A stretch of DNA of 26,180 nt from a virus. Its lineage: Duplodnaviria; Caudoviricetes. The translations under genes were made by a program, and so were the position numbers. Shown here piece by piece: positions 9,421 to 24,799 of the stretch. How positions within the stretch are numbered: position 1 is the stretch's first letter; every line of letters begins with the position of its first letter. The stretch lies in IMG/VR virus record IMGVR_UViG_3300030395_000077, positions 1 through 26,180 of that record. One strand, written 5' to 3'. Under the pieces are notes generated by a model that saw nothing but the letters and a program-made list of their open reading frames with translations, did not search any database and was not told the DNA's origin.

Positions 9421-12198
9421 ATGAAAACGATAGACTTTTTAAAGTCAGTTTTGGGAGACAATGGACTATACTGTGCTTGGGGGTTTAAAGGAAACAAAAG
9501 AGTACAGCAGTTCTACAAAACTGTAGAAGAATTAGAGACCGCTGCGTATGAATACGACAGAGACGGTTACGATATATACTATGCACTAGCTACCTATAAA
9601 GAAGCGGGTGAGCAAAAAACACCGGAGATGGTGCTTGGTAGAGAACAAAGCAACGTACAAGAGATGCGTTCTTTCTTCCTAGATCTAGATTGTGGTGAGA
9701 AAAAAGACTATCCATCACAAGAAGCAGCAGTGGACGCATTACAAGAGTTCCTTGTAGAGACTTGTCTACCTGAGCCTATACTAGTCAACTCTGGCAACGG
9801 GGTACATGTGTATTGGCCTTTAGATAATCCTGTGTCCCGCGAGGAGTGGGAGCCAGTAGCTAACAAGCTCAAACGTGTCTGTAGGAGATTAGGACTTAGG
9901 GCCGATCCGGTCCGCACGTCCGATGCCGCTAGTATTCTACGCATACCCGCAACACATAACCACAAAAGCAATACACCTAAAGAAGTAATTGTATATGGAG
10001 ATGGTACTGAACTAACCTCTCTTGAAGTGTTCAGCAGTACGCTCGCGCCAGACGAAGAGGATAAAACGAACGAGGGTTATACGTTTGGTTCGACAGATGC
10101 GTTTGCTCCACACAGAAGCAATAAAGAATATCTATTTGAGACCATCATGCATAAAACTATGGACGGTGTGGGATGCAGTCAGCTAGGGTACATTGCATCG
10201 TATCAATCGCTTATTGATGAACCTCTATGGGTATCAGGGTTGTCCATAGCCAAACACTGCAAGGACGCAGAATATGCAGCAAAAGCTATATCTGATGAAC
10301 ACCCTGACTTCGATGAAGAGGTGCTGCAGAAGAAGCTTGAGGGTATCAGCCACAGACACACCTGTATAACTTTTGACGATAGACGACCAAATGTGTGTAA
10401 CGAATGTCCACATTGGGGTAAGATACGATCACCTTTAGATCTTGGAGAATATATAGCAGAGGCAGAGCCAGAGCCAGATATGCCCACGTACCCTGCCCCG
10501 TACTTCAGAGGTAAGAACGGTGGCGTATATAAAAGAGTACAAGATGCTGAAGGTAATCCAGAAGATTTAGAGATATACAAAAATGATCTCTTTATAACAA
10601 AACGGCTACATGATCCTGATCAGGGGGAGATAGCTGTATATAAACTGAAGCTGCCCAAAGATGGTGTGAGAGAGTTTAGCATACCGCTATCTTCTGTGTC
10701 GTCTACTGAGGAGTTTCGTAAGCACATGTCTGCACAAGGCGTAACAGCTATGGGAGCAGGATTAAAGTTATTGATGGAGTATTCTATGAGATGGGTTGAT
10801 GAACTACAGACACAAGGGCCAGCAGATAAGGCACACCAACAGTTTGGATGGACAGATGATACACTAGAGGAGTTCGTACTGGGCGACCGACTGGTGGTAG
10901 AAACAGATATAAAATTTAGTCCACCGTCTGCAAAAACTTCAGGATTAGTGAGTGCATTTGTTCCTGCAGGTACTGCTGATAGGCAGAAAGAACTGTTTAA
11001 CTTTTACAACCAAGACGGGTTTGAGTTGCACAGGTTTATTATTGGTATGGGTTTTGGCACTGCGCTGATGCCTATGACAGGTATAAATAGTATGTTGGTG
11101 CATTTGTTTGGTGGCACAGGGGTAGGTAAAACTACGGCTCAGATGATGGCGTTGTCTGTATGGGGTAATCCCGAACTTTTGATGAACCAGAGGGACGATA
11201 CCTACAACTCTATGATGAACCGTGGAGAGGTCTTGCACAACATACTCCTATCTATGGATGAGATGACAAACATAACAGGGCTAGAGTTCTCCAAGTTTGT
11301 GTATCAACTATCTGGTGGTAGGCAGAAGAACAGACTGACTGTTAGCGGAAATCAAGAAAGAACAAGGGGCAGACCTTGGGAGTTACTCAGTGTTTCGTCA
11401 GCTAACACAAGCGCATGGGAACTACTTAGACAAGGTAAGGCTGAACCCAAGGCAGAAATGCAGAGGCTACTAGAGATAGACGTGCCTAGCATGATCAAAC
11501 CCGACCCAAAGTTAAAGATCGTCACGGACGCTTTATTTGAAGATGTAAAGAAGAACTATGGGTGGTTTGCTGAAGATTACGTGCAGTGGGTAATAGCTAA
11601 CAAAGATACTGTGCGTGATTTGATGCAACAAGCTAGACAGAGAATAGACGAAGCGGCAGGGCTTACGTCTGAGAACAGGTTCTGGAGTGCAGGGTGTTCG
11701 GCATCTATGGTAGGGCTTCTTATAGCATCTAAGCTAGGTATTGTAGACTACCCTATGGATAAGCAGTTTGACTGGATTGTAGGTTTGCTACGAAAGCAGC
11801 GTAATACTGTAAATGATATAGGCGCGTCTGTAACTGAAACCATGAACGATTTTATTGCGGAACACTGGAGTAACATTCTACATATACGAAGTAGTCAGGA
11901 CAAAAGAACTGACGGTGTAGAAGAGATAGTCATACCTGACTTTAACCCAAGATCTTTGGTTGCACGGTACGAGACGGACAGAAGAAAGTTGTTTATACGT
12001 CCAACACCGTTACGCGAGTGGTGTGCCAAACAACAGCTAAATTATGCAGAACTTGTTAAGAGTCTGAAAGCAGACATGAACGCAAAAGCAAACGTGGTCG
12101 TGCGTTTTGGTAAAGGCACAAAGTTTGACATACCACCGTGCAAAGCACTTGAATTAGATTTTAGTATTGATGGCGCAAATGAACCAGAAAGTACTTAA
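9421..12198 (+). CDS. Primase-helicase: AEP (RepB-like) primase, Cys-rich middle domain, DUF927/P-loop helicase
   Basis: AEP motifs FLDLD, SGNGVHVYW, ILRIP.THNHK; Cys cluster GCSQL...HTC...CNECPH; QFGW; Walker A GGTGVGKTT; Walker B LSMDE; GGRQKNR. Confidence 0.9.
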   Translation: MKTIDFLKSVLGDNGLYCAWGFKGNKRVQQFYKTVEELETAAYEYDRDGYDIYYALATYKEAGEQKTPEMVLGREQSNVQEMRSFFLDLDCGEKKDYPSQEAAVDALQEFLVETCLPEPILVNSGNGVHVYWPLDNPVSREEWEPVANKLKRVCRRLGLRADPVRTSDAASILRIPATHNHKSNTPKEVIVYGDGTELTSLEVFSSTLAPDEEDKTNEGYTFGSTDAFAPHRSNKEYLFETIMHKTMDGVGCSQLGYIASYQSLIDEPLWVSGLSIAKHCKDAEYAAKAISDEHPDFDEEVLQKKLEGISHRHTCITFDDRRPNVCNECPHWGKIRSPLDLGEYIAEAEPEPDMPTYPAPYFRGKNGGVYKRVQDAEGNPEDLEIYKNDLFITKRLHDPDQGEIAVYKLKLPKDGVREFSIPLSSVSSTEEFRKHMSAQGVTAMGAGLKLLMEYSMRWVDELQTQGPADKAHQQFGWTDDTLEEFVLGDRLVVETDIKFSPPSAKTSGLVSAFVPAGTADRQKELFNFYNQDGFELHRFIIGMGFGTALMPMTGINSMLVHLFGGTGVGKTTAQMMALSVWGNPELLMNQRDDTYNSMMNRGEVLHNILLSMDEMTNITGLEFSKFVYQLSGGRQKNRLTVSGNQERTRGRPWELLSVSSANTSAWELLRQGKAEPKAEMQRLLEIDVPSMIKPDPKLKIVTDALFEDVKKNYGWFAEDYVQWVIANKDTVRDLMQQARQRIDEAAGLTSENRFWSAGCSASMVGLLIASKLGIVDYPMDKQFDWIVGLLRKQRNTVNDIGASVTETMNDFIAEHWSNILHIRSSQDKRTDGVEEIVIPDFNPRSLVARYETDRRKLFIRPTPLREWCAKQQLNYAELVKSLKADMNAKANVVVRFGKGTKFDIPPCKALELDFSIDGANEPEST

Positions 12199-12406
12199 AA
12201 TAGATGACTTGAACCCAGATGGCGTTGGTATAAGCGTCAACTGGGACGCTATGGAAGTAGGTTATTCTGTGTTTGTACCCTGCGTGAACACGGAAAAAGC
12301 GAAAGAACAAGCCAAAAATGTTGCAAAAATGAAATACTGGCAGATAGAAACGCGAGTTTTAGAAGAAGATGGTAAATTAGGCTTGCGTATTTGGAGAACC
12401 ACGTGA
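12167..12406 (+). CDS. Small hypothetical protein (WxxMEVGxSVFVP...GLRIWR), possibly DNA-binding; start may be 12170 or 12179
   Basis: Motif pattern seen in small phage proteins; overlaps the primase end and is the last + strand gene. Confidence 0.75.
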   Translation: MMAQMNQKVLKIDDLNPDGVGISVNWDAMEVGYSVFVPCVNTEKAKEQAKNVAKMKYWQIETRVLEEDGKLGLRIWRTT

Positions 12407-12475: not shown

Positions 12476-12503
12476 AGCCCCTACCAAGCGTAGGGGCTTT
12501 TTT
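12476..12503 (+). terminator. Intrinsic terminator at the convergence of the two gene blocks
   Basis: AGCCCCTAC-caagc-GTAGGGGCT 9-bp stem followed by a T run; abuts the stop codon of the minus-strand giant gene. Confidence 0.85.
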
Positions 12504-15500
12504 AATCAAAGATAGTAGGATCTCCGTACCTCTCGGCTTGCTCTACTAACATGTTTCTCAACCTTGGATTCAAGGTGAGGCCATTGTATGCCCCGGCTCG
12601 CTGCCGTATCCTACCACGTATAGACTTGTCTAGGTTATCTTGTAGGATCGGATACTGCGGGTAGCGTTGATTGTATTCTACTATCTTTTGCGCCGTCCTT
12701 TGCATTCCTTCCATATCCCCATCGAAGTACGCTCTAGCATACATGTTGTAGATTTGACGTCTTTTTCTTAGTATGGCCTTTTGTAGTCTCATTGTTTGTG
12801 AGTTTGTTGCCATCTGTGCGGAGTACGCTGCAGGGCTAAAACCAAAGAACTGAGCAACCAGATGTCCATCTGCAATATCTTGAACGATTGGCTTACCGTC
12901 CATAGTGTATGCACCACCCTCTCGTGCAAACCTAGCCGCCTTCTGCATATTCTTTATAGCTGCAGGAGATATGGTCTCTATACCACGTCTTAGTTTTTCC
13001 GTGTCTCCGTTAGCAGCGCCTTCTAATATTTGATTTAACCCACGTTCTGTATTTAAAGCTATACCTATGACAGGACCACCAAGTTGTTCCGCCATTCTAA
13101 ACAACAGAGGCCAATCCCTGTCCATCATGGAATCTCTATAGATTAATTCACTAAGTCCAACACGGGAAGCTATGTTGACACCTGTAAAGTAGTTTACGCC
13201 TCCTTTGTACACTCCTTCATGTAGGTAGGCACGTGCCATTGTCTTTGCATCGTCGTCTTCTCCGCCGGGGTCCATTCCCATAGCAGCCATAACCGTGTCT
13301 ATGACTGTTGTTGCTAACCCAAACCCGGGCATACCGTATACCCCTGCTAAGAGGCCAGATGTTCCATAGATACCCGCTAGTTGGTATAGTGCCAAACGTC
13401 TGTCTGCAGGAGATCCTTTTGTTATCTTCATAACCATCTCGGTAAGCATACCGATCATCGATACGCCGTATCGCTTATACATAAAGATGACCGCACCTAA
13501 GTTTCTCCTGCCAAGTTCAGGGGCAGCGGCAGCGGCTATACCACCGTTTGTAGTCTCTGTATCATAAACTGCATCTTGTGCTGCTTTGAGCAGTAGGTCA
13601 GGGTTAGCCCTTTGTTGTGGTGATAGTTTACTTAATGCCCCGCGATACGCGGCAAACAAAGCTGCTTCTCTGTTTATACGTTCTGTGTGGTGTTGGATAA
13701 ACCCAGAGAACTTATTAAACTTAGACCAGAAACCCCCCATCCTATCTACATCTAATATCTCATGATCGAGAGATCTTTTGAACTGCCCTAGATCTACGCC
13801 AGTATCTATGAACACTTGCAGCTCTTCCGGGGTTATACCCATTTTGTTGAGGATACGTCTCTGTACACGTGTCAGGTTTCTGGGGTTCACGTTACTTATT
13901 GAATATCCCGAACCTACCTCAGTCTCAATAGCTTGATTGTTAGCATCTGTGCCATACCCCATAATTGTACGAGTACCGCCACTATTTTTCATGAGAGACA
14001 TAGCACCTTTTATGCCTCCCATTGTAGTCCTAATTCCATACTTACCGCTAAGATATGGAAGGGTAACTAGCGGTATTTGCGTTAAGTTAACGAGACCACC
14101 TGATATGTTCATACCCAGTGTCATATTAAACCCAATACCTGTCAAAGCTCTGGAGGTCTTACTACGTTCAGGTATTGGACCATCTCTTACAGTGCTGCGT
14201 AAAGAGTTGAGTAGTTCGTTTTTGTCTATGCGGTTACCACCGCTCTCATTCATCTCTTTCTCAACTTTGCTAAGTGCTTGTTGCATCTTTGCTTTGTATT
14301 TTATGTTTACAGACTGCCGTATTAGAGACCTAGAGCGATCTGCGATAGCCTTCATAGAATCTTCGTTATAGCCCATACGTGCCTTGATAAGGTCACCACC
14401 TTTACGCATTCTAAACGACTGTAGGTAAGATGTCTCAGGTAGAGTTTTGAGTATGACGTTAGCTATCTCATCTTTTGTCTCAGCAGTTAGCTCACCGCTA
14501 CCCTCTAGTTTAGCCATTAACTCATTAACAAAAGACGCATTTGGCGCACGTCTCATAAAACTTGTAGCATCTAGTTCTTGTGTAGATTCTACAGCAAGCA
14601 TGTCATCTAGTGCATCTGCTTCAGACATCTGAGACATACCCTGAGTACGAGATTCAAGAGCAATTCTTGCGGGTGAACCTTCTGGGGCGTTCAGTATATT
14701 TTGTTTGGCATCTGCTACTATAGCTTCTCTGGCCCGATCCCTAGCCTGTTCTCCTTGGAACGAGTCTGAGTATCTTTCTATACGTCCTGTTACCGGGTCA
14801 ATAGCATTGAGAGACAGCCAGTAATCTCCACCGTCACGTTGTAATGGAGTATAAGGTTCTAACTTACCCTTTTTTATAAGGTTGGTGTAAAAAGTATCTC
14901 GTATAGCAGCCCTAGATTGTTCAGGTACACCAGATGCCTCTAGCCGTGTGTCTATGGCTCTAATCAGATCTTCTACCAAACCTTTAAACATGTTTTGAGA
15001 TTGATGATAAAGTCGTATAGGTTCACCTCTGTCTACACGCTGCAGTCTTTTGTAATCTTTTCGTATGATCTCGTACACTTTGTACATATCAGGAGAGTAC
15101 TTATCTCTAGCCTCTCGCTCTGAGAGTGCAGGATTTACTTGATAAGAAGTACCTATGTTATTTAAACGGTTCCATGCAGCTATATTCTTCTTACTAGATT
15201 TGTTAGCCCACTTAACAATTCCATCATTCACTTGGTTTACTTTGTCGTATCCTGACTGAAGTTCTCCACCAGATTGGTTCACTAGGTTGTTTATATCTGC
15301 CGCACTCGGGGCAAACTTCTCAGCCATACGTGTGACGTAATGTAGGGGAGTAGCCTTGAGTACCCAACCCTTCACCGTGCCTAACTTGTCCTGACTCCAG
15401 TCCTTGGGTGTTTGTTTTGTCAACTCTTCAAACTTATTATACGCTGTTTCATCAAACACAGGACTATTTGTTGTTGCATCTTGGAACAGTCGATCTACTG

Positions 15501-18500
15501 CGGCAGGGTTGTGAGCAATCTGAAACAATGGAGCAGCATCTCTAGAAATCGGTGCAGGTTCCATAAGTTTATATACAAGTGGGTCTATCACCTCTAAGAG
15601 AGACTTTTGCACTGGAGGCTTACCGCCAAGCTCAAATCCGATCCTCTGGAATATACGACGTATTGCTTCTATAACTCTTTGATAGGCCGTGCCGTATCTG
15701 TTAGGGTCTAGTAGCTCAGATAGAGTAGTTCGCATCTGTTGGTTGGAAGGTATTTCAGCGATAAACTCATCAAAGTTATATGCACTGGGGAAAGCTTCTT
15801 TAACATCGTTATATATTTTACGTAGTGTTAGTACGGGTGCGGATTGTGGGTTGTTTGCAATATATGAAGACATGACAGCGTGACCTACCTCATGTAGGAA
15901 CGTATGTTCTGTCGTAGGTACATTTGTATTAAATGTTATTGTGTTTGTTCTGGGAGCAAAGAACCCTGCAATCTGCTCGCCCTTATCTTCAAAACGTACT
16001 TGCGTGTTCCCCGCGTACTTAGCAAAAGTCTTTGCAAACATTCTAGAGGCGGGGTTTGCATCTGCAGCATACTGCCTCAGTGCATCGGATAAGTTGTTGT
16101 CCTCCAACATAGTCATAACTGTAGGATCTAAAGGCCGATTTCGATCCGTAACAAATTGAGTAAGGAGAGCATCTTTTTTGTTAAACAAGTCTGGGAGACC
16201 TAGAGAACCGTCTCTGTCTTGGGTTAGGTCTTCGTAGGTAAGCCCTTCTCCGTACAAACTTGCTAATAAGTTTTTATCTTCTCTGATCTTTGCCCGCATA
16301 GAGTTTCTTCTGAACTCTAGTTTCTCCATTGCACGTAGGGCTTTTTCGTCGTTGGCTCTGTTAGCAGTCTTGAAGTTTAACGCACGTTCTTCCTCTTTTG
16401 TGAGGAACTCTGTTCTGTCCAGTTTAGATAGCGAGGACTCTGTATCTAAATCTACCACTTTTGTGCTTAGTCCTTCTATCTCTGAAGGTAGTGAGATACT
16501 AGTTGCTAGTCTTTCTTCTCTTTCTTGTTCTACTTGTTCTTTATCTAGTTGCTCGTTTAAACGCTCCGTCGCTCTTTGTTCGTCTGCCTTTACTTTAGCC
16601 TCCATTGCTTCAGCTTGTGTAGGCTTGGGTTTACCATCTCTAGTATACGCATCTGCAAATTGAGCGTCCCACTCAGCCTGTGCCGCTACAGATTCAGGAT
16701 CACGACCAACGGGTCTAGGCTCTACATCCTGTAGTTTTGTTTTAATTTTGTATTGCTTACGACTTTTTGGGTTTAGACGTTCTAGTACATCAGCTTTCTG
16801 TTCGTTGTAACGCTTAGTGGTTTCTGGAGCTAAGTTATCAGTGACCCACTTCTCTGCTAATTTTGCTGTATCCTGATCAAAAGGTTCTGCAAACGCAGCG
16901 GCACGAGCGGCCTGACCCTCGCCAGATAATTTACCCCCTACACGGGCAGGAGCAGTATCGCTAACTTTTATCTGTGTACGTGAGGCTATCTCATCTAGAG
17001 CTGTCTCAGGTCGTTCAAACCTTTCAAAGAAAGTAAATGCAGCTTGTTCTTCAGGTGTTAGAGCAACCTCATCGGGATCATCACGCCGTTCGTATTTTCT
17101 TGATAGGCTGTTAAGTTTTGCAAGATCTTTCGTAGAAAGGTAGTTTTCTGGACTTGACGCTTCTCTGTCACCAACAAGCTCATCATGAAAAACTCCTAGC
17201 TCTGGGTTCTTTTGCTTCCATCCTGCAAACTTACCAACAAAAACATCACGCTCTGCCTGTTGCATTATCAGGTCATTCTGTAGTCCCGCAGGATCGTTGG
17301 GGTCTATGAACCTAGTGCCTTGTGGACCACTAATAGTTGTAGCCTGTGCTAGTAAGGTGTCTGTTGTTATTTCGCTGAATTTATTCTTTTTACGTACGCC
17401 ACCTGCTGCTGCAGAGACAGGTACATCTTTAGTCTTAGACTTGTCTGTGGCTTTTTCTGTAGTGTCCTCTAACTCTGCATCGTCTTTCTTACGAACCAGA
17501 CCACTCATATCTACAGACTCGTCCTCCTTACGGACCAGACCACTCATATCTACAGACTCGTCCTCGTTTGTGACTTCTTCTGTCTCTTCCTCTGTCTCTT
17601 CCTCTTTCTCTTTGGTTTTGTCTTCTACACTTTGTACTTTAGCCTGAGTTTTTATCTGGTCGGTTAATGTATCTGGCTGTACTCCTGTTGTGTCTGTAGC
17701 ACCATCAGTAGACAGCACACCTCCTCCCACTGGTCCATCGTTAGATGATACAGCGTCTTCGGTACTCTCAGCTCCACTTCCGTCCCCTTCGCCTCTAGCC
17801 ACGCTAGGTTGACTATCTCCATCGCCTGTTCCAGTTCCTGCGCTGTCAGCATCATCTGTGGTGGTATCAGTTGCATCGTCTGTCTCCTGCTCTTGTATTT
17901 GACTACTTGCCGAAGCAGTGGAACCTCCAATAGTTTCGTTAAAGCTAGTAGTGCCACGCGCTCGTCCGGGTCTTATTAAATCAACCAAGAACTGCACAGT
18001 ACCACCTGCAGCCCCGCCATAACCCGCTGCTTCTAAGTTACCCTCTCCAAGCTCTTGTTCTAGATTATATCCTTGCTCTATAAGGTTCTGCAGTACGTTT
18101 GCTGCTGTTTCCTGTGCGCCTTCTATACCACCCTGTGCAAGCGCACGTTTTATGCGGTTAAGCCCACCTGTGTTTCTTATACGCCTCATTATAGGGCCAC
18201 CAAGAGGGATAAGTTCAGTAGCGCCTACACCTGCGCCTTGTTTTATAGCTAGATCCCGCTCTGCGTCAGTAGCACCTGCGGCTAACGCTCTCTCACTTGC
18301 CTCACCACTACCCGCTGTAACTGCTGTACCAAACGCTAACGGTATACCAACATACGGTATAAATGCAGGGGCGTACGTACCTGCTACAGATCCTAACGTC
18401 TCACCGAACTTACCTACTTTCGAGTCTTCTAAACCGATGTCTGGTTGTATTTTTCGTTGTACACCATAGGACAAGCTCTTGATAAAATCTCGTGCAGACA

Positions 18501-18798
18501 TCTCTGTCTTATCGTCTAAAGGTAGTAACGCTGCAGTACCAAGTGCTGAAGTTTCTGCAAGACCTACACCACCTCGGCCTATACCTTTGAAGAACTCACC
18601 TACCTGATTAGAAAACCCAGAACCCTCGTCTGTAGGTGATACGCCATATTCAGCTTTATATTCTTCTATAAACTGTGCATCGTTCTGCCTGATTATAGAA
18701 TCAATTTTCCGTTGTTCGTCTGTAGTGGGTTCATCCCCAGCGATAGTAAAACTGTATTTACGTCCGCTAAGTTCACTAGCTTGGATGATGTTACCCAT
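12502..18798 (-). CDS. Giant internal virion/ejection (large polyvalent-type) protein with zincin metallopeptidase motif
   Basis: 2098 aa; Gly/Ala hydrophobic N-terminal region, acidic linker, GFF...NTI...FLHEVGHAV...DEFIAE, and a helical C-terminal region with hydrophobic segments. Last gene of the late block. Confidence 0.8.
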   Translation of the reverse strand: MGNIIQASELSGRKYSFTIAGDEPTTDEQRKIDSIIRQNDAQFIEEYKAEYGVSPTDEGSGFSNQVGEFFKGIGRGGVGLAETSALGTAALLPLDDKTEMSARDFIKSLSYGVQRKIQPDIGLEDSKVGKFGETLGSVAGTYAPAFIPYVGIPLAFGTAVTAGSGEASERALAAGATDAERDLAIKQGAGVGATELIPLGGPIMRRIRNTGGLNRIKRALAQGGIEGAQETAANVLQNLIEQGYNLEQELGEGNLEAAGYGGAAGGTVQFLVDLIRPGRARGTTSFNETIGGSTASASSQIQEQETDDATDTTTDDADSAGTGTGDGDSQPSVARGEGDGSGAESTEDAVSSNDGPVGGGVLSTDGATDTTGVQPDTLTDQIKTQAKVQSVEDKTKEKEEETEEETEEVTNEDESVDMSGLVRKEDESVDMSGLVRKKDDAELEDTTEKATDKSKTKDVPVSAAAGGVRKKNKFSEITTDTLLAQATTISGPQGTRFIDPNDPAGLQNDLIMQQAERDVFVGKFAGWKQKNPELGVFHDELVGDREASSPENYLSTKDLAKLNSLSRKYERRDDPDEVALTPEEQAAFTFFERFERPETALDEIASRTQIKVSDTAPARVGGKLSGEGQAARAAAFAEPFDQDTAKLAEKWVTDNLAPETTKRYNEQKADVLERLNPKSRKQYKIKTKLQDVEPRPVGRDPESVAAQAEWDAQFADAYTRDGKPKPTQAEAMEAKVKADEQRATERLNEQLDKEQVEQEREERLATSISLPSEIEGLSTKVVDLDTESSLSKLDRTEFLTKEEERALNFKTANRANDEKALRAMEKLEFRRNSMRAKIREDKNLLASLYGEGLTYEDLTQDRDGSLGLPDLFNKKDALLTQFVTDRNRPLDPTVMTMLEDNNLSDALRQYAADANPASRMFAKTFAKYAGNTQVRFEDKGEQIAGFFAPRTNTITFNTNVPTTEHTFLHEVGHAVMSSYIANNPQSAPVLTLRKIYNDVKEAFPSAYNFDEFIAEIPSNQQMRTTLSELLDPNRYGTAYQRVIEAIRRIFQRIGFELGGKPPVQKSLLEVIDPLVYKLMEPAPISRDAAPLFQIAHNPAAVDRLFQDATTNSPVFDETAYNKFEELTKQTPKDWSQDKLGTVKGWVLKATPLHYVTRMAEKFAPSAADINNLVNQSGGELQSGYDKVNQVNDGIVKWANKSSKKNIAAWNRLNNIGTSYQVNPALSEREARDKYSPDMYKVYEIIRKDYKRLQRVDRGEPIRLYHQSQNMFKGLVEDLIRAIDTRLEASGVPEQSRAAIRDTFYTNLIKKGKLEPYTPLQRDGGDYWLSLNAIDPVTGRIERYSDSFQGEQARDRAREAIVADAKQNILNAPEGSPARIALESRTQGMSQMSEADALDDMLAVESTQELDATSFMRRAPNASFVNELMAKLEGSGELTAETKDEIANVILKTLPETSYLQSFRMRKGGDLIKARMGYNEDSMKAIADRSRSLIRQSVNIKYKAKMQQALSKVEKEMNESGGNRIDKNELLNSLRSTVRDGPIPERSKTSRALTGIGFNMTLGMNISGGLVNLTQIPLVTLPYLSGKYGIRTTMGGIKGAMSLMKNSGGTRTIMGYGTDANNQAIETEVGSGYSISNVNPRNLTRVQRRILNKMGITPEELQVFIDTGVDLGQFKRSLDHEILDVDRMGGFWSKFNKFSGFIQHHTERINREAALFAAYRGALSKLSPQQRANPDLLLKAAQDAVYDTETTNGGIAAAAAPELGRRNLGAVIFMYKRYGVSMIGMLTEMVMKITKGSPADRRLALYQLAGIYGTSGLLAGVYGMPGFGLATTVIDTVMAAMGMDPGGEDDDAKTMARAYLHEGVYKGGVNYFTGVNIASRVGLSELIYRDSMMDRDWPLLFRMAEQLGGPVIGIALNTERGLNQILEGAANGDTEKLRRGIETISPAAIKNMQKAARFAREGGAYTMDGKPIVQDIADGHLVAQFFGFSPAAYSAQMATNSQTMRLQKAILRKRRQIYNMYARAYFDGDMEGMQRTAQKIVEYNQRYPQYPILQDNLDKSIRGRIRQRAGAYNGLTLNPRLRNMLVEQAERYGDPTIFD
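17488..17565. repeat. 2 x 39-bp in-frame tandem repeat encoding EDESVDMSGLVRK twice
   Basis: 17488-17526 and 17527-17565 differ at a single synonymous base. Confidence 0.95.
17664..17876 (-). CDS. Probable overprinted 70-aa gene nested out of frame in the giant protein gene
   Basis: Minus strand reads gcAGGAGAcagacgATG; the product is amphipathic and helical (MQLIPPQMMLTAQELEQAMEIVNLAWL...WEEVCCLLMVLQTQQEYSQIH), while the host frame here is a D/G/T/S-rich linker. Confidence 0.55.
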   Translation of the reverse strand: MQLIPPQMMLTAQELEQAMEIVNLAWLEAKGTEVELRVPKTLYHLTMDQWEEVCCLLMVLQTQQEYSQIH

Positions 18799-18808
18799 GT
18801 AGCTACTC

Positions 18809-21694
18809 CTACGTCAGATCATAGTTTGCAAATATATCGCTACCCGTAGGTATACTTCCAATAGACGCGGTTGTTATAAGTGCGTTTAACTGATCATCTG
18901 TTTGTTTAATCGCTTCTCTTAATGCAGCGGCTCTATCTGCGAGTGGTCCTTCTGGATTAGTACCCATAGGAGCTATTCTTTCAAGCTGCTCTGCTAGTTC
19001 TTCTCTTCGTTTTAATAAGATACGAGAGGACACTGTTGCCCCTGATATCGCAGCCCTATTTGCGGCGGAGGCTTTAGCTGCATCTATGCGACCTTGTAGT
19101 GCAAGTACCTGTAGTTTGTTCTTGTTGTAACTATCTTTACCTTTTTTCAAGGTATCTGTCCCTGCTTTTAGAGCTTTACCAAGACCTTCACCAAACGTAG
19201 GAGAAGGCATCATGAGTGCTGCACCTGCATTAGCCAAAGCCATAGCTTTATCAAACTCTCTATCTTTCTCTAGACCACTAAGATACTCAGACAACGCTGC
19301 GCTAGATGCCCCAGACTGCTTATCTATAGCACTCTGTTGTTTGTTAAGTAGCTCCATTAACTTGTCTATTTCTGTCTGAGAAGCTGTATCTGTCGCATCT
19401 TGCTCTTCTTCTAGTTGTTTCTTTGTTGCTTTATCTATCTCTCTAAAGTTTGGTGGTTCAGAGCCTACAGCCACGTCTTCAGCATCAAACGCTTTTGACG
19501 CCTTGTTATTTTCTATGGTTGTAAGAAAATCTGATCCAGCTTGAGCAACGTCATCAATAATCTCTAAGCCCTTTGCTCCAGCCTTTTTAGCAAACTCAAT
19601 AACATCTTCTTGTGTCATACCTCTTATGTCTTGACCTAGACCTTCAAGATACAGTTTAGCCCTGTCGAACCTAGACTGAAGAGTAGGTTTAGCATTTGGA
19701 TCAGTCCCACCGGGTATGCCTTCTTGTTGGTTTTCCAATGTCTGTGCGAACAACGCTCCAAGCCCTGAACGACCTCCACCACCGGGCATAGCCTTCTTCT
19801 GGTTTTCTATTGTCTGTGCAAAATAATCTCGCACGGATGACGGTAGGTACGCAAGGGAAGGATCGCCATACACTTCTTCTGGGCTTTGATCGAGGCGACC
19901 TGCTCGCGCATCTTTGAAATAGTCTGCCGCCCTACCTGATACATCAGCCATAGCATCGCCGTAGTCTGGTATTCCTACGCCAGCTATCGATGATTGTAAT
20001 TCTTTTAATGAAAGGCCGTAAGGATATACGCCTTGTATACGCTCTGGCGGTTGAATTAAGTCACCAAACTCATCATACTTAGGTATTGGTGCTAACCGAC
20101 CAAATTGTCCTTTTGGTTCGTAGCTTTTCAATATCTCAGACAAGACTTGTTGTTTCATGTCTTCACTCTCAGGCATAGAACCTGCTAGTGTTGCCTCATA
20201 TTGATTAGCAAGATCTGGTTTATAAGTATCACCCTCAAAGATTCTAGGGACTACCGCTGTATTTGATGGCCTAAAAGAAACCTCTTCTGGCCCGACTCTA
20301 AGAGGCACGGGTGTGGTCTCAGAAGCGAGTAAATCTCTAATTTGCGCTGCCTTCCTAGCTTCTGCCTCTTCTAATGCCTTACCACCTAACTTAAACGGTT
20401 GATTCGCACTGGATGTATTAAAGAATAGTGCATCATCTGAATCCCCATCGGGCATGATAGGTGGTGGTTGTGATATAGTTTGAGTTGGGATACCCAAGCG
20501 TGAAATTTCTTCAGCTACGCTTGATTGAACTGCGGATTCTGGTTTAGGAGCTACAGCTAGAGGTCCAGAGGGAAACACGTCTCCCTGCGATATTGAACGG
20601 TCGCCCATTGTAAATTTAGCCGGACCGTCGGTCATTGGAGAGCCGATCTGATTAGTTCCACGAGGAAAGCCACTAGTAAACCTAGAGTAAGCAGGGTCTC
20701 CAAACCCGGTAAAAGTATCTTTTGGACCAAAAGGTAGGGGCTGTGTAACAGTTGTCGGTGTGCCTTTTAAGAACTCAGTAGGAGTGCCTTCTGCAAATAG
20801 TGATGCGGCTATGCTAGGGTCTCCTCCAGCTTCGACTGGTTTTTGTGCTTCATCAAGAGCAGCCTGTCGAGCCATGTTAATAACATTTAGTTCTTCTAAA
20901 CTAAGCTTCTCTGCTGCTTTTTCTCTGTCATCAAAGGTATAAGCAAAATTAGGGTTAACCCTAGGAAGATTTCGTTGTAGCCAATTACCATGTTTTTTAA
21001 AGAGTTTATCTGATTGCCTGTCTTTTAGGGTTTGCGCCATGTCAAAAATTACACGGGCGTCATCATCCTCAAAAAGAGTGCCTATAGCGTTTAGAGACTT
21101 GTACGCGGTGTCTAGACTTATGTACGCCCCTGCCCCCGCTATTAGATTTAACGCTTCTAAACCTGTTAATTTTGCTTCCTTTAAAACCTTTTTGACGCTT
21201 TTACCTACTTGTATCTTTTTAGATATCTCTAAAGCCCTTGCAGCATCTGGGGGTATTGTCTCCAGTGCTTCTAAGGCTGTCATTTCAGGTTCTTGTGCTA
21301 CTCGTGGCTTACTAAACCCTGCCACATCGTATGATGGTGGACTCATTAGAGACATAATATTACTCATTATCCCACCGGGCTGTGCTTTTACTACGCCACC
21401 CTCTGCCATCTGCATGACGCCCGTATTCTGTGTGTTGTCTGTCTTTGCGTTCATAGCACTCGCTAACTGTGCTATACCGCCCTGCGGCACTCCTACAGCG
21501 TTAATAACTTCTTGAGTGACGGTATTTGCGCCATCAGTTGCTTCTCTTCGCGCTTGATCGCTTTCCATATTTTTTCTACGGTTTAGCTCACTTACAACCA
21601 TATATTGTGGCACTGAGCCTGATTTAAGAACTTGCATAAGTTGCTCTTTAGAGAGACCCTTTAACTTATTCTGCATTTCTATAAGATTGTACAT
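18809..21694 (-). CDS. Probable internal virion/ejection protein, 961 aa
   Basis: Large ORF in the late block; helical N-terminus, MAEGG motif, Pro/Gly-rich middle, and C-terminal ALANAGAALMM..PTFGEGLGKAL plus coiled coil. Confidence 0.65.
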   Translation of the reverse strand: MYNLIEMQNKLKGLSKEQLMQVLKSGSVPQYMVVSELNRRKNMESDQARREATDGANTVTQEVINAVGVPQGGIAQLASAMNAKTDNTQNTGVMQMAEGGVVKAQPGGIMSNIMSLMSPPSYDVAGFSKPRVAQEPEMTALEALETIPPDAARALEISKKIQVGKSVKKVLKEAKLTGLEALNLIAGAGAYISLDTAYKSLNAIGTLFEDDDARVIFDMAQTLKDRQSDKLFKKHGNWLQRNLPRVNPNFAYTFDDREKAAEKLSLEELNVINMARQAALDEAQKPVEAGGDPSIAASLFAEGTPTEFLKGTPTTVTQPLPFGPKDTFTGFGDPAYSRFTSGFPRGTNQIGSPMTDGPAKFTMGDRSISQGDVFPSGPLAVAPKPESAVQSSVAEEISRLGIPTQTISQPPPIMPDGDSDDALFFNTSSANQPFKLGGKALEEAEARKAAQIRDLLASETTPVPLRVGPEEVSFRPSNTAVVPRIFEGDTYKPDLANQYEATLAGSMPESEDMKQQVLSEILKSYEPKGQFGRLAPIPKYDEFGDLIQPPERIQGVYPYGLSLKELQSSIAGVGIPDYGDAMADVSGRAADYFKDARAGRLDQSPEEVYGDPSLAYLPSSVRDYFAQTIENQKKAMPGGGGRSGLGALFAQTLENQQEGIPGGTDPNAKPTLQSRFDRAKLYLEGLGQDIRGMTQEDVIEFAKKAGAKGLEIIDDVAQAGSDFLTTIENNKASKAFDAEDVAVGSEPPNFREIDKATKKQLEEEQDATDTASQTEIDKLMELLNKQQSAIDKQSGASSAALSEYLSGLEKDREFDKAMALANAGAALMMPSPTFGEGLGKALKAGTDTLKKGKDSYNKNKLQVLALQGRIDAAKASAANRAAISGATVSSRILLKRREELAEQLERIAPMGTNPEGPLADRAAALREAIKQTDDQLNALITTASIGSIPTGSDIFANYDLT

Positions 21695-22557
21695 TAGACT
21701 AACCCACGATAAAGACCTAGACCCGCTATCCCTGCACCCAGTGCTTGCTGCATTGGATTGTAGTTTTGGAACCCTGTTACTGTTCTATTAGGTTGCACAG
21801 GAATACCCTGCAAAATATTTGATAGGAACCCAAGCTGATCTTTGTTAAAGCCCTGTTGCCTAAGAAAGTCTTGATACCCAATATCCAGCCCTGCTTGCGT
21901 CTCACCAAGCTGTGCTTTACCGATACCTTCTAGTAACTGTGCGCCTTGTATGTCGGCGGCTCTACGTTGGCCCGCTAACCCAGCATACTGTCCAAGTCCA
22001 GCTAGACCTGTCTGCCTATCTCTATCAAATGCTGCTTGTGCGTCTCTAAACGCGGCCTCTCTGCCCATAGCATCAATATCGCCAAGCTGCTGCTGTAGCC
22101 CTTCTTGCGCCAAATAATCTGCAACGGCTGTCCTTGATCCACCAAATGCCCCTTGTTTTACTGCGTCTGCTGCCCTAGCTGCACCTGTTCGGTTAAAATC
22201 TCGTATAGCAGCGGTCTTCTGCCTGTCTAAAACAGTATCTAGGTATGGGTTCATATACTGATCTGCAACTGCACCCGTAAACTGACCGGGCATCGAGAGT
22301 GCGCCTACACCCTGTATCGCGGTGTCTAGTTCTGGCATCCCTGCCCCTGCTACATTCCGCACCATATTTCTGGAGTCAACTATATCTTGGACATCTCCAG
22401 ACTGCGCTAACCGTTGACCTTCAAAAGGCGTGTATTGCTTGTTGGACTCCGCCTCAGTACGCTCCATAAGGTTTTCGTAGTACGGACGAGCATACTCTGG
22501 TAGCTCTGTAACGTACGTCTGTTTACCTGTTTCTGCCTGTCTTCTACCCTTGCCCAT
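21694..22557 (-). CDS. Probable DNA-transfer/ejection protein
   Basis: LPEYARPY, YMNPY, GAFGGSR, Q/A/G-rich body and C-terminal hydrophobic LGAGIAGLGLY; TAATG coupling on both sides. Confidence 0.7.
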   Translation of the reverse strand: MGKGRRQAETGKQTYVTELPEYARPYYENLMERTEAESNKQYTPFEGQRLAQSGDVQDIVDSRNMVRNVAGAGMPELDTAIQGVGALSMPGQFTGAVADQYMNPYLDTVLDRQKTAAIRDFNRTGAARAADAVKQGAFGGSRTAVADYLAQEGLQQQLGDIDAMGREAAFRDAQAAFDRDRQTGLAGLGQYAGLAGQRRAADIQGAQLLEGIGKAQLGETQAGLDIGYQDFLRQQGFNKDQLGFLSNILQGIPVQPNRTVTGFQNYNPMQQALGAGIAGLGLYRGLV

Positions 22558-23000
22558 TACGATAGCTCCATTTTATAAGCAATATAGTCTGGCTTCCACC
22601 CGTACTTACCAAGCCAACGACCCCAACCTTTTCTACCATAACCTTCTAAATACTTACAGTTATGGTCTTTAGCATACCTAGAAATCATTTCTTGTGCCAT
22701 AGATAACCATTCTTTCATCCTTGTACCGCCTATCCAGTCCATAGCCATAGCATTTGCTTGTGGGTACAAGATGAGTCTGGTTGTAATAGCTGCAATAACT
22801 TCATCATCTTTGTCATGATCTACAACAATCCACAGGACTAACTCGTCATTTTTTACGAGTGGGTACAAATCATCTACTTCATACTTACCTTTTGCTGTGC
22901 CAACTGACTCTTTAAGTACTTTTGCAACGCTAGACCACACCGCATCTAGATAATCAGTCGGCACTGGTGTGAACATCAACCCTGTTCTTATGTCCTTCAT
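22557..23000 (-). CDS. GNAT acetyltransferase-like protein
   Basis: 147 aa alpha/beta pattern LWIVV...AAITTRL..YP...WIGG...W...AK..NC..LEGYGRKGW.RWL...GW, located among the ejection genes. Confidence 0.55.
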   Translation of the reverse strand: MKDIRTGLMFTPVPTDYLDAVWSSVAKVLKESVGTAKGKYEVDDLYPLVKNDELVLWIVVDHDKDDEVIAAITTRLILYPQANAMAMDWIGGTRMKEWLSMAQEMISRYAKDHNCKYLEGYGRKGWGRWLGKYGWKPDYIAYKMELS

Positions 23001-24139
23001 GTTATAGCACTTCTCATAATTTTTTCAGCGTCTATCTGTTTTGGTTGCTCAGTAGAACCTATTGACTGTTTACGAATTTCTTCTCGCATCTTATCTAGTT
23101 TCTTTGCCCCTGCATCACTAGAACCGTTGCCAATCATAGCAACTGTTGGAGCATCTATCATATACTCGTCTTTACTGGCTAGTAAGTCTTGTTTTCCGTC
23201 TATGGTTGCAGGTACTGAGTCGCTCATGCCGTCACCACCACCTTGCACTTGCCCGTCCATTTTTCCAGTTATATTATCATACTCACCGTCACGTACGTCC
23301 GTGATTAAATCTTTTAGTGCCTCTTCACCGTATTCGTTTACAAACATAGCCAATGCTATAGACGCTTGTTCCTCAGACATGTTTCCTTTCAAGGCGTTTA
23401 CAGCGTTTACGATAACATCCTTTTCGTTCACCCTCTCTGGGGCTGTGTCTACATCCCCGCCTTCTTGAAGAACTTGTACTTTCTGTAGCTCTGATGCAGG
23501 GGGGTTATAGAATCCATAGTTAAACTCTGGGTCTACTCCGGGTCTATACCTTGGCGTAGGGAATCTTATATTGTCCTGTATAGGCATTGTTTCAGTACGT
23601 TGGTAATCAGACTTCTCTGTACCTTCGTCCTTCGGTGCGCTTAACGCACTGCCTAGAGCTGCTCCCCCACCCACACCTGCGGCTAACATTGGGTTGGCTT
23701 TGGCTATGGCTATACCTTGATTGAGTAAAGGAGCCATTATTTTATCACCCTTTGTTGACGCTGCTTTGAAAAAATTAAAGGGTTCTTTAGGGACAAACAT
23801 ACCTGAGTTCTCAAGCGGAGTAATAGGTGTTGGCCCTTTTAGAGCCTCTGTCAGGTTAAAACCATACCCTTTAGACTTGTCTATATAAGGGGCCATAGTT
23901 ATTTGCTTCCCACCAAGCACGCTAACTTCAGGGTTTGTAGGCACAGCCTCACCCATTTTACCTAGGCCACCTAGTAGTTTACCACCCGCAAAGCTCAATA
24001 ATCCTGTCTTTATAGCATCCCCAAAATCGTCTCCTTGCAACAAACTACCGATCCCAGAACCTATAGATCCTGCAAGTAGTGGATTCATTGCGGGAAAGAG
24101 AGCTGGGGCTAAGAAGCTACCTAGAACGGGAAGTACCAT
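22997..24139 (-). CDS. Probable virion/ejection protein with a Gly-rich hydrophobic N-terminus and a C-terminal GDGMSDS domain
   Basis: ATG 24139 after GGAGA (the track start 24154 is an upstream TTG); glycine-zipper-like segments; GGGDGMSDSVPA...EYMIDA..V..IGNGSSDAGAKKL. Confidence 0.65.
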   Translation of the reverse strand: MVLPVLGSFLAPALFPAMNPLLAGSIGSGIGSLLQGDDFGDAIKTGLLSFAGGKLLGGLGKMGEAVPTNPEVSVLGGKQITMAPYIDKSKGYGFNLTEALKGPTPITPLENSGMFVPKEPFNFFKAASTKGDKIMAPLLNQGIAIAKANPMLAAGVGGGAALGSALSAPKDEGTEKSDYQRTETMPIQDNIRFPTPRYRPGVDPEFNYGFYNPPASELQKVQVLQEGGDVDTAPERVNEKDVIVNAVNALKGNMSEEQASIALAMFVNEYGEEALKDLITDVRDGEYDNITGKMDGQVQGGGDGMSDSVPATIDGKQDLLASKDEYMIDAPTVAMIGNGSSDAGAKKLDKMREEIRKQSIGSTEQPKQIDAEKIMRSAIT

Positions 24140-24181
24140 ATTTATCTCCAACAAGTCTGTGTATATACTAGCATTGGTACG

Positions 24182-24799
24182 CTAAGATATCCACTCATAA
24201 ATCTTCTTTGTTTCTTTTACACGATGATCTAATCCAGTGTAACCACCGTTTATACGTTTTGTCAGTCTTTTTATAGTGTCATCGTTGACACCTTCATCAC
24301 ATATTGTCCATAAATTATTCTTCTTAAAGAACCACAGAGCTGTATCCATTGCATAGTCCTCTTCTAACAACTGTGGGTTATCTAGAACTTCTGGGACACG
24401 CATGTCTGATGCAAACGATCTTACGTTGTTATATCCGGTTAATTGTAAAAATCCTCGGCCTATGTAGGCGCTGGCTTTTTCTTTGGTATCGTTCCCCATC
24501 CTGTCGAAATACACGTTTTCAGCCAGTGCTTTAGGGTTTCTGGCAAATGGTTCTGCGCTCTCTTTTGTAGGGAAACGACTAGGCCATACTTTCATAATAG
24601 CTTCTACAGAATAGTTTAGGTTCTCTCTTGTATACTTAAAAGATCCGCTTTCATGCACAACTTGACCTAGTAAATGTGCGCCCCGCTTTGGCGATAGTTC
24701 GTAGTGTGCTACTATAGCTTTGGCTGTGTTAGGACCGAATGCACCGTCTGGGGTTACGCCACACTTCTCTTGTAGTTGTTTTAGTGCTTCAAACGCCAT
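24182..24799 (-). CDS. Endolysin: glycoside hydrolase family 19 with a short N-terminal peptidoglycan-binding motif
   Basis: LQ...GVTPDGAFGPNT; HLLGQVVHESGSF, ENLNYS, GRGFLQLTG, ALWFF, TKRINGGYTGLDHR. Confidence 0.93.
   Translation of the reverse strand: MAFEALKQLQEKCGVTPDGAFGPNTAKAIVAHYELSPKRGAHLLGQVVHESGSFKYTRENLNYSVEAIMKVWPSRFPTKESAEPFARNPKALAENVYFDRMGNDTKEKASAYIGRGFLQLTGYNNVRSFASDMRVPEVLDNPQLLEEDYAMDTALWFFKKNNLWTICDEGVNDDTIKRLTKRINGGYTGLDHRVKETKKIYEWIS

Follow-up and report, generated by a model that had tools for sequence, protein, structure and literature searches.

The window analysed here, 26,180 nucleotides of the viral record IMGVR_UViG_3300030395_000077, represents part of the genome of a podovirus-like phage. 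Genes for PolA, an exonuclease, an SNF2 helicase, SSB and a DUF927 primase lie on its plus strand. On the minus strand is a late operon whose products include an endolysin, a protein that PHROG labels 'DNA ejection' and a giant protein of 2098 aa. The closest cultured phages by PolA show only 34-37% identity, and the sequencing runs that best match the window are marine metagenomes. The late genes upstream of the giant gene (18809..24799, minus strand) encode proteins of 961 aa, 287 aa, 147 aa and 385 aa and the endolysin, and the 287-aa protein matches phrog_4287 (DNA ejection protein). A 79-aa gene located after the primase (12167-12406) shows a weak match to DUF7303 and is conserved in the group.

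The giant gene (12502..18798, minus strand) matches phrog_10089 and phrog_11358 over its C-terminal part. It begins with a Gly/Ala-rich N-terminal module (codons 1-285; 17944..18798), which is swapped among relatives, followed by an acidic low-complexity linker (about codons 281-480; 17359..17958), a zincin-like metallopeptidase domain (about codons 877-1080; 15559..16170) whose HExxH lies at residue 969, and finally a C-terminal module that is helical (12502..15393). The last is common to the DarB-like / PLxRFG giants of cultured phages, at 22-28% identity, and weakly resembles the PhiM1 ejectosome in fold (8vb2, E 0.075). Comparison with L007, L027, L028-L034 and L070 revealed a mosaic, in which each of three parts (the N-terminal module, the peptidase and the C-terminal module) varies independently of the others. 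The giant resembles the polyvalent proteins with MPTase domains described by Iyer et al. 2017 (PMC5512222) in its large size, late-gene context, zincin HExxH and DarB-like C-terminal module. Judged from its context, it is likely to be an internal virion (ejection) protein of this phage polyvalent-protein kind. Relatives of the giant are reported in virions of JC1 (gp69; PMC9144972) and phi24B (gp47; 10.64898/2026.04.10.717836).

Within the linker, and in +1 relative to the giant gene, lies a nested gene of 70 codons (17664..17876, minus strand). This ORF starts with ATG at 17876, ends with a TAA at 17664 and overlaps the giant ORF (18798-12502) at main codons 308-378. A Shine-Dalgarno (SD) sequence, AGGAG (17884..17888, minus strand), is located 7 nt ahead of the ATG and is the strongest among the 62 +1-frame ATGs of the giant gene, in agreement with the original prediction, which had pointed to a strong SD at normal spacing. 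The frame of the nested ORF also holds the longest same-strand off-frame open stretch (102 codons) across the 24 genes of the window. A 97-aa longer form starting from GTG at 17957 was considered and ruled out, as relatives carry stops immediately upstream of the ATG. A scan of 17300-18900 for sigma-70-like promoters showed none. Within the nested interval, D, G, T, S and A account for 54 of the 71 residues of the main frame, which has no Lys and no aromatic residue at all. This shift in composition had been proposed to cover exactly the nested interval; it is indeed sharp at the 3' end, but the low-complexity linker extends past the ORF on both sides. Downstream of the nested gene, the linker contains a tandem duplication of about 39 nt (17486-17563), which is single-copy in L001, L003 and L004.

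Taken by itself, the window genome does not place the nested ORF beyond chance. When the main peptide was held fixed and its codons were resampled in 20,000 draws, the +1 frame over the nested-ORF codons was open in 15-19% of the synonymous reshufflings, and an ATG ORF of at least 70 codons with an SD appeared in 4-6% of the draws. Stops in +1 can arise only where a purine comes after a host-frame L, I, V or M codon. The linker permits this at only 4 positions, and the openness of the frame in a single genome proves little. These figures speak for the reading that there is no gene here and that the open frame is the shadow of a linker poor in L/I/V/M. The significance of the nested ORF rests on its relatives and not on the window genome.

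Relatives of the nested ORF were found on 102 other contigs (distinct names, duplicates removed). The nested frame was intact on all of them and lay wholly within an open giant frame, in +1, on 101; as most of these contigs were retrieved with nested-frame alignments or proteins, intactness is partly built into the set, but nesting is not. The complete giants of the relatives measure about 1,500-2,560 aa and carry the nested gene at host codons of about 370-880. No standalone copy was detected among the 102 contigs, which were gathered by seeded searches. The one locus with a host-frame stop inside an intact nested ORF (L144:2478-2648) is on a 4-kb metagenome contig and may stem from an assembly error, from a copy that has become defective or from a giant that is split. 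Searching from the host N-terminus, a query blind to the nested frame, yielded 16 loci, one of them ending too early; all 9 close loci among them had an intact nested ORF, at identities as low as about 30%. No nested-family profile match was obtained for the six distant N-terminal homologs (L011-L016), which match the N-terminal module only in part, at 34-40%, three of them being partial loci; 12 giants of cultured phages gave none either. Related giants can therefore be without the nested family. In five loci (L043-L047) the nested frame is open for 151-155 codons with an SD-like start upstream, and a longer form is possible there.

When 1.84 billion representatives were searched with a profile, 75 clusters came back; most are 57-100 aa long, and a few are spuriously long or are chimeras of the two frames. 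The family amounts to about 70 clusters at 50% identity. No real match was obtained when the nested protein and P0031 were searched by tblastn against 50,697 cultured phage records; searching GTDB genome contigs with the nested-family alignment A1 gave no relative, and a search seeded with P0067 gave no viral locus. The claim that gene callers would miss the nested gene was mostly upheld, although called products do exist (22 in one profile search and the 75 clusters in the other). Gene callers are described as penalising large overlaps (PMC10356776). In databases, some giants are mis-started inside the nested ORF (P0014, P0015, P0017 and P0019; 1747 aa).

Substitution patterns in the relatives carry the main evidence for a gene. 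The codon-position test used 15 hand-chosen disjoint pairs out of 53 loci and the last 57 nested codons. Differences at nested codon positions 1, 2 and 3 numbered 89, 35 and 194, and pooled pN/pS was 0.15 for the nested frame and 2.66 for the host frame. The nested frame was better conserved than the host frame in all 15 pairs. Outside the overlap, the third position of the host frame was the most variable, as is usual. An independent contig from run X19 showed the same shift in wobble: within the ORF, nested position 3 held 7 of the 9 differences, and upstream of it all 12 listed differences were at host position 3, as worked out by hand with 2 further rows outside the listing. The stop changed from TAA to TAG. 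This contig comes from an RNA library, which has no bearing on transcription. Raw reads from X23 and X24 numbered only 6 and 3, a depth too low to use. In L028-L034 the nested protein is far more conserved than the host giant; it shares 72% identity between the window and L028 and 81% between the window and L030, while the remainder of the giant shares 28% and 30%, respectively. These comparisons indicate that the nested frame is under purifying selection, and that the host frame reads through it as a permissive linker. The apparent positive selection on the linker (pN/pS 2.66) is a mere shadow of the nested frame, and such a false signal is a trap for evolutionary studies. The original prediction had also held that selection on the nested frame shapes the host linker, and this is supported by the host-frame composition of the overlap at 93 loci, where aromatics make up 0.3% as against 3-4% in the flanks and Lys 3.3% as against 8%.

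Translation signals are equally well retained. In the window and 92 contigs, an SD of at most -4 kcal/mol together with ATG, GTG or TTG was present at 93 of 93 loci, against a control of 565 further off-frame ORFs from these genes, of which 110 had both; a stricter SD motif test gave 45 of 53 loci and 5 of 270 controls. The start codon was ATG at 72 loci, GTG at 13 and TTG at 8, and among 53 loci the stop was TAG in 28, TAA in 22 and TGA in 3. Host-frame residues at the nested SD/start site vary widely among the 93 loci. The expectation that homologs would likewise be nested in giant genes with SD, start and stop conserved was thus borne out, as was the expectation of frame-specific selection. 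An empty open frame explains neither the inverted wobble pattern and the pN/pS of 0.15, nor the conserved SD, start and stop, nor the higher nested identity in 15 of 15 pairs, and it is very improbable that no gene is present. We consider it almost certain, as originally predicted, that this ORF is a genuine nested gene, belonging to a large family that has no name, and its translation into a small protein is very likely. The family is widespread and strongly selected among phages yet largely invisible to annotation, and it sometimes leads gene callers to truncate the giant protein.

Translation would proceed by internal initiation at the nested gene's own SD on the late mRNA. A programmed frameshift from the giant gene into +1, giving a short N-terminal isoform that ends in the nested domain, is the other route that we weighed. 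SD-like sites inside genes are able to stimulate frameshifting, and a few database proteins do fuse host and nested frames (P0040, P0041, P0050, P0076 and P0105). However, a true start codon follows the SD at 93 of 93 loci, alternating among ATG, GTG and TTG; no host-frame codon context is common to the 93 loci; and at several loci a nested-frame stop is located 1-3 codons ahead of the start. The junctions of the chimeras lie at differing places, as expected of assembly indels. A start that is always present, the lack of a common host context and the stops before the start make frameshifting the less likely route, and we regard it as improbable. With regard to origin, overprinting may be favoured, since such linkers are easily open in +1; the alternative, a once separate gene captured by read-through, is possible.

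The product is predicted to be a small acidic two-helix protein. In the nested protein of the window, helices are predicted at residues 12-28 and 47-66 with a net charge of -7, and AlphaFold2 gave two helices with an ordered loop between them (pLDDT 84.9). The motif P-x-x-L-x-H-L-x4-W is present in 88 of 93 members; the C-terminal residue is His in 82 and Gln in 11, and the median charge is -5. Neither a transmembrane segment nor, in the last 56 residues, a lipobox was detected in any of the 93 members. Comparison of 64 members with Pfam, PHROGs and NCBIfam gave no consistent match, and none of the 64 matched TnpV (PF14198) in Pfam. The nested protein had no match among PDB sequences or in the ESM Atlas. 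In fold searches, Foldseek returned no match and the best VIA hits (Z 5.3) were to unrelated proteins, which does not imply a new fold.

The closest known kind of architecture is that of Rz/Rz1, exemplified by lambda Rz1, an embedded spanin gene inside Rz (PMC6139136). The likeness lies in a small same-strand +1 gene wholly contained in a larger gene, a mutationally tolerant linker and frequent omission from annotation. Unlike Rz1, the nested family has neither a lipobox (0/93) nor a transmembrane segment, and no separated form of it was found among the 102 contigs; unlike Rz, its host is a 2098-aa peptidase-bearing virion giant and not an i-spanin in a lysis cassette. The nested gene is a new instance of a known same-strand nested architecture. 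In the main text of Iyer et al. 2017 (PMC5512222), the terms 'overlap', 'TnpV', 'disordered' and 'low-complexity' are absent and nested genes are not described. In the main texts of the freely available articles searched, genes nested inside those of giant virion proteins are not described.

With respect to function, our best explanation as a whole, which we prefer only tentatively, is a nested gene translated by internal initiation, the product of which would act in the cytoplasm on the late operon's ejection proteins, as a non-structural chaperone of assembly or a loading factor. We put forward this role on its own with somewhat greater reserve. It is favoured because the gene is never found apart from the giant, lies in a late operon and encodes a small, acidic, soluble product, and because P1 provides a precedent, in that Ulx 'aids DarB localization' and both Ulx and DdrB are small accessory proteins that help to load the injected giant DarB (PMC9024508). 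These P1 proteins differ from the nested gene in being encoded by separate genes and in being virion-associated, and the analogy is functional only. Tail assembly chaperones such as P2 gpE and Mu gp41 (PF10109) are likewise small, helical and acidic and serve an ejected protein. Unlike them, the nested gene is not encoded upstream of its presumed client, and no tape-measure gene was seen in the window. Homology to tail chaperones was rejected: profile comparison gave probabilities of 0.1% for P2 gpE and 0.6% for Mu gp41. A weak match to PF10109 (6.6e-5) was seen for 1 of 64 members.

Co-variation with other modules was assessed over 55 dereplicated loci, with 7-46 loci per module, subsets that differ between modules and pairs that are non-independent. 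On this basis, nested divergence correlated with that of the N-terminal module (rho 0.59), of the upstream late genes (rho 0.45-0.80, except for a 127-aa gene at 0.15), including the endolysin (0.74; 7 loci) and the 147-aa gene (0.80; 12 loci), and of the 79-aa gene beside the primase (rho 0.52-0.59; 44 loci for 0.52). The values were 0.24-0.34 for the peptidase and 0.20-0.26 for the C-terminal module. Control windows of 55 columns from the C-terminal module gave 0.31-0.55 against the peptidase and 0.13-0.41 against the 79-aa gene. That nested divergence follows the N-terminal module and the upstream late genes also supports a chaperone role, while the peptidase and the C-terminal module co-vary with it only weakly, which argues against a tight link to the downstream part of the giant. 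The client would more probably be the N-terminal module of the giant or the upstream core proteins than the peptidase. The chaperone role is weakened by the lack of homology to known chaperones and by how strongly the nested gene co-varies with the 79-aa gene, a pattern that a host-tracking protein would show equally well.

Such a protein would be a late host-binding factor, directed for example at a host enzyme or a replication-to-packaging switch, for which the giant gene is only a site on the late transcript. This is possible, and only slightly less likely than the chaperone role. The genes that the nested divergence follows (endolysin, 147-aa and 79-aa) may track the host or the core lineage, whereas the downstream modules reach only 0.20-0.34, and the control windows of the C-terminal module follow the peptidase and not the 79-aa gene. 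The much higher conservation of the nested protein than of the giant in L028-L034, and the presence of unrelated nested ORFs in such linkers of other phages, also fit host binding. Against this, the nested gene never occurs outside the giant gene on the 102 contigs, and much of its correlation is accounted for by its being physically linked to the operon's 5' part. The original prediction had further suggested, besides a chaperone, an inhibitor of the giant protein or its metallopeptidase; on this reading the peptidase would be held inactive until ejection. Among the first 53 giants, 50 have HExxH, and the conserved terminal His (82/93) could bind zinc. Nevertheless, four complete giants without HExxH (L070, L071, L108 and L148) retain an intact nested gene with its SD, the peptidase being absent from L070/L071, which makes an inhibitor unlikely; the co-variation with the peptidase, at most 0.34, is also weak. 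We therefore give inhibition very little weight and retain the chaperone as the preferred reading.

As a candidate chaperone, the nested gene may be of interest for how ejection proteins of 2,000 residues are kept soluble and loaded into the capsid, a step that is poorly understood. A bolder generalisation, which we hold to be rather unlikely though worth stating, is that the genes of injected phage giants are, as a rule, built around those of the chaperones that load them. The 'disordered linkers' of these giants would then be read-throughs of small, more conserved genes, and the His-ended family would be a dedicated chaperone that folds or loads ejection proteins in a large uncultured podovirus group.

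Other SD-led +1 ORFs, absent from the record annotation, were found in similar linkers of 5 of the 12 cultured-phage giants. The Erwinia phages PEp14, Pavtok and Stean share an unannotated 76-aa His-ended +1 ORF with an SD in a DarB-like giant, at 64-68% identity (L042:5619-5846, L088:3001-3228 and L089:3001-3228). Alignment of this ORF with the nested family by hhalign gave a probability of 7% (E 0.005, 31 columns) and there was no HMM match, both being His-ended. A second +1 ORF of 66-73 aa, located 6 codons past the nested stop, is present in four close contigs (L098-L101); it is basic and Leu/Trp-rich and has a strong SD. PEp14, Pavtok and Stean share a further unannotated +1 ORF of 105 aa, which resembles one in POI1126. 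ORFs of 105-107 aa are located at L042:7857-8171, L090:7676-7990 and L093:14338-14658 in the giants of PEp14, POI1126 and Bcep22, and weak TnpV (PF14198) matches, below the curated cut-off, were obtained for the 105-aa ORF of PEp14 (4e-4) and the 107-aa ORF of Bcep22 (0.045).
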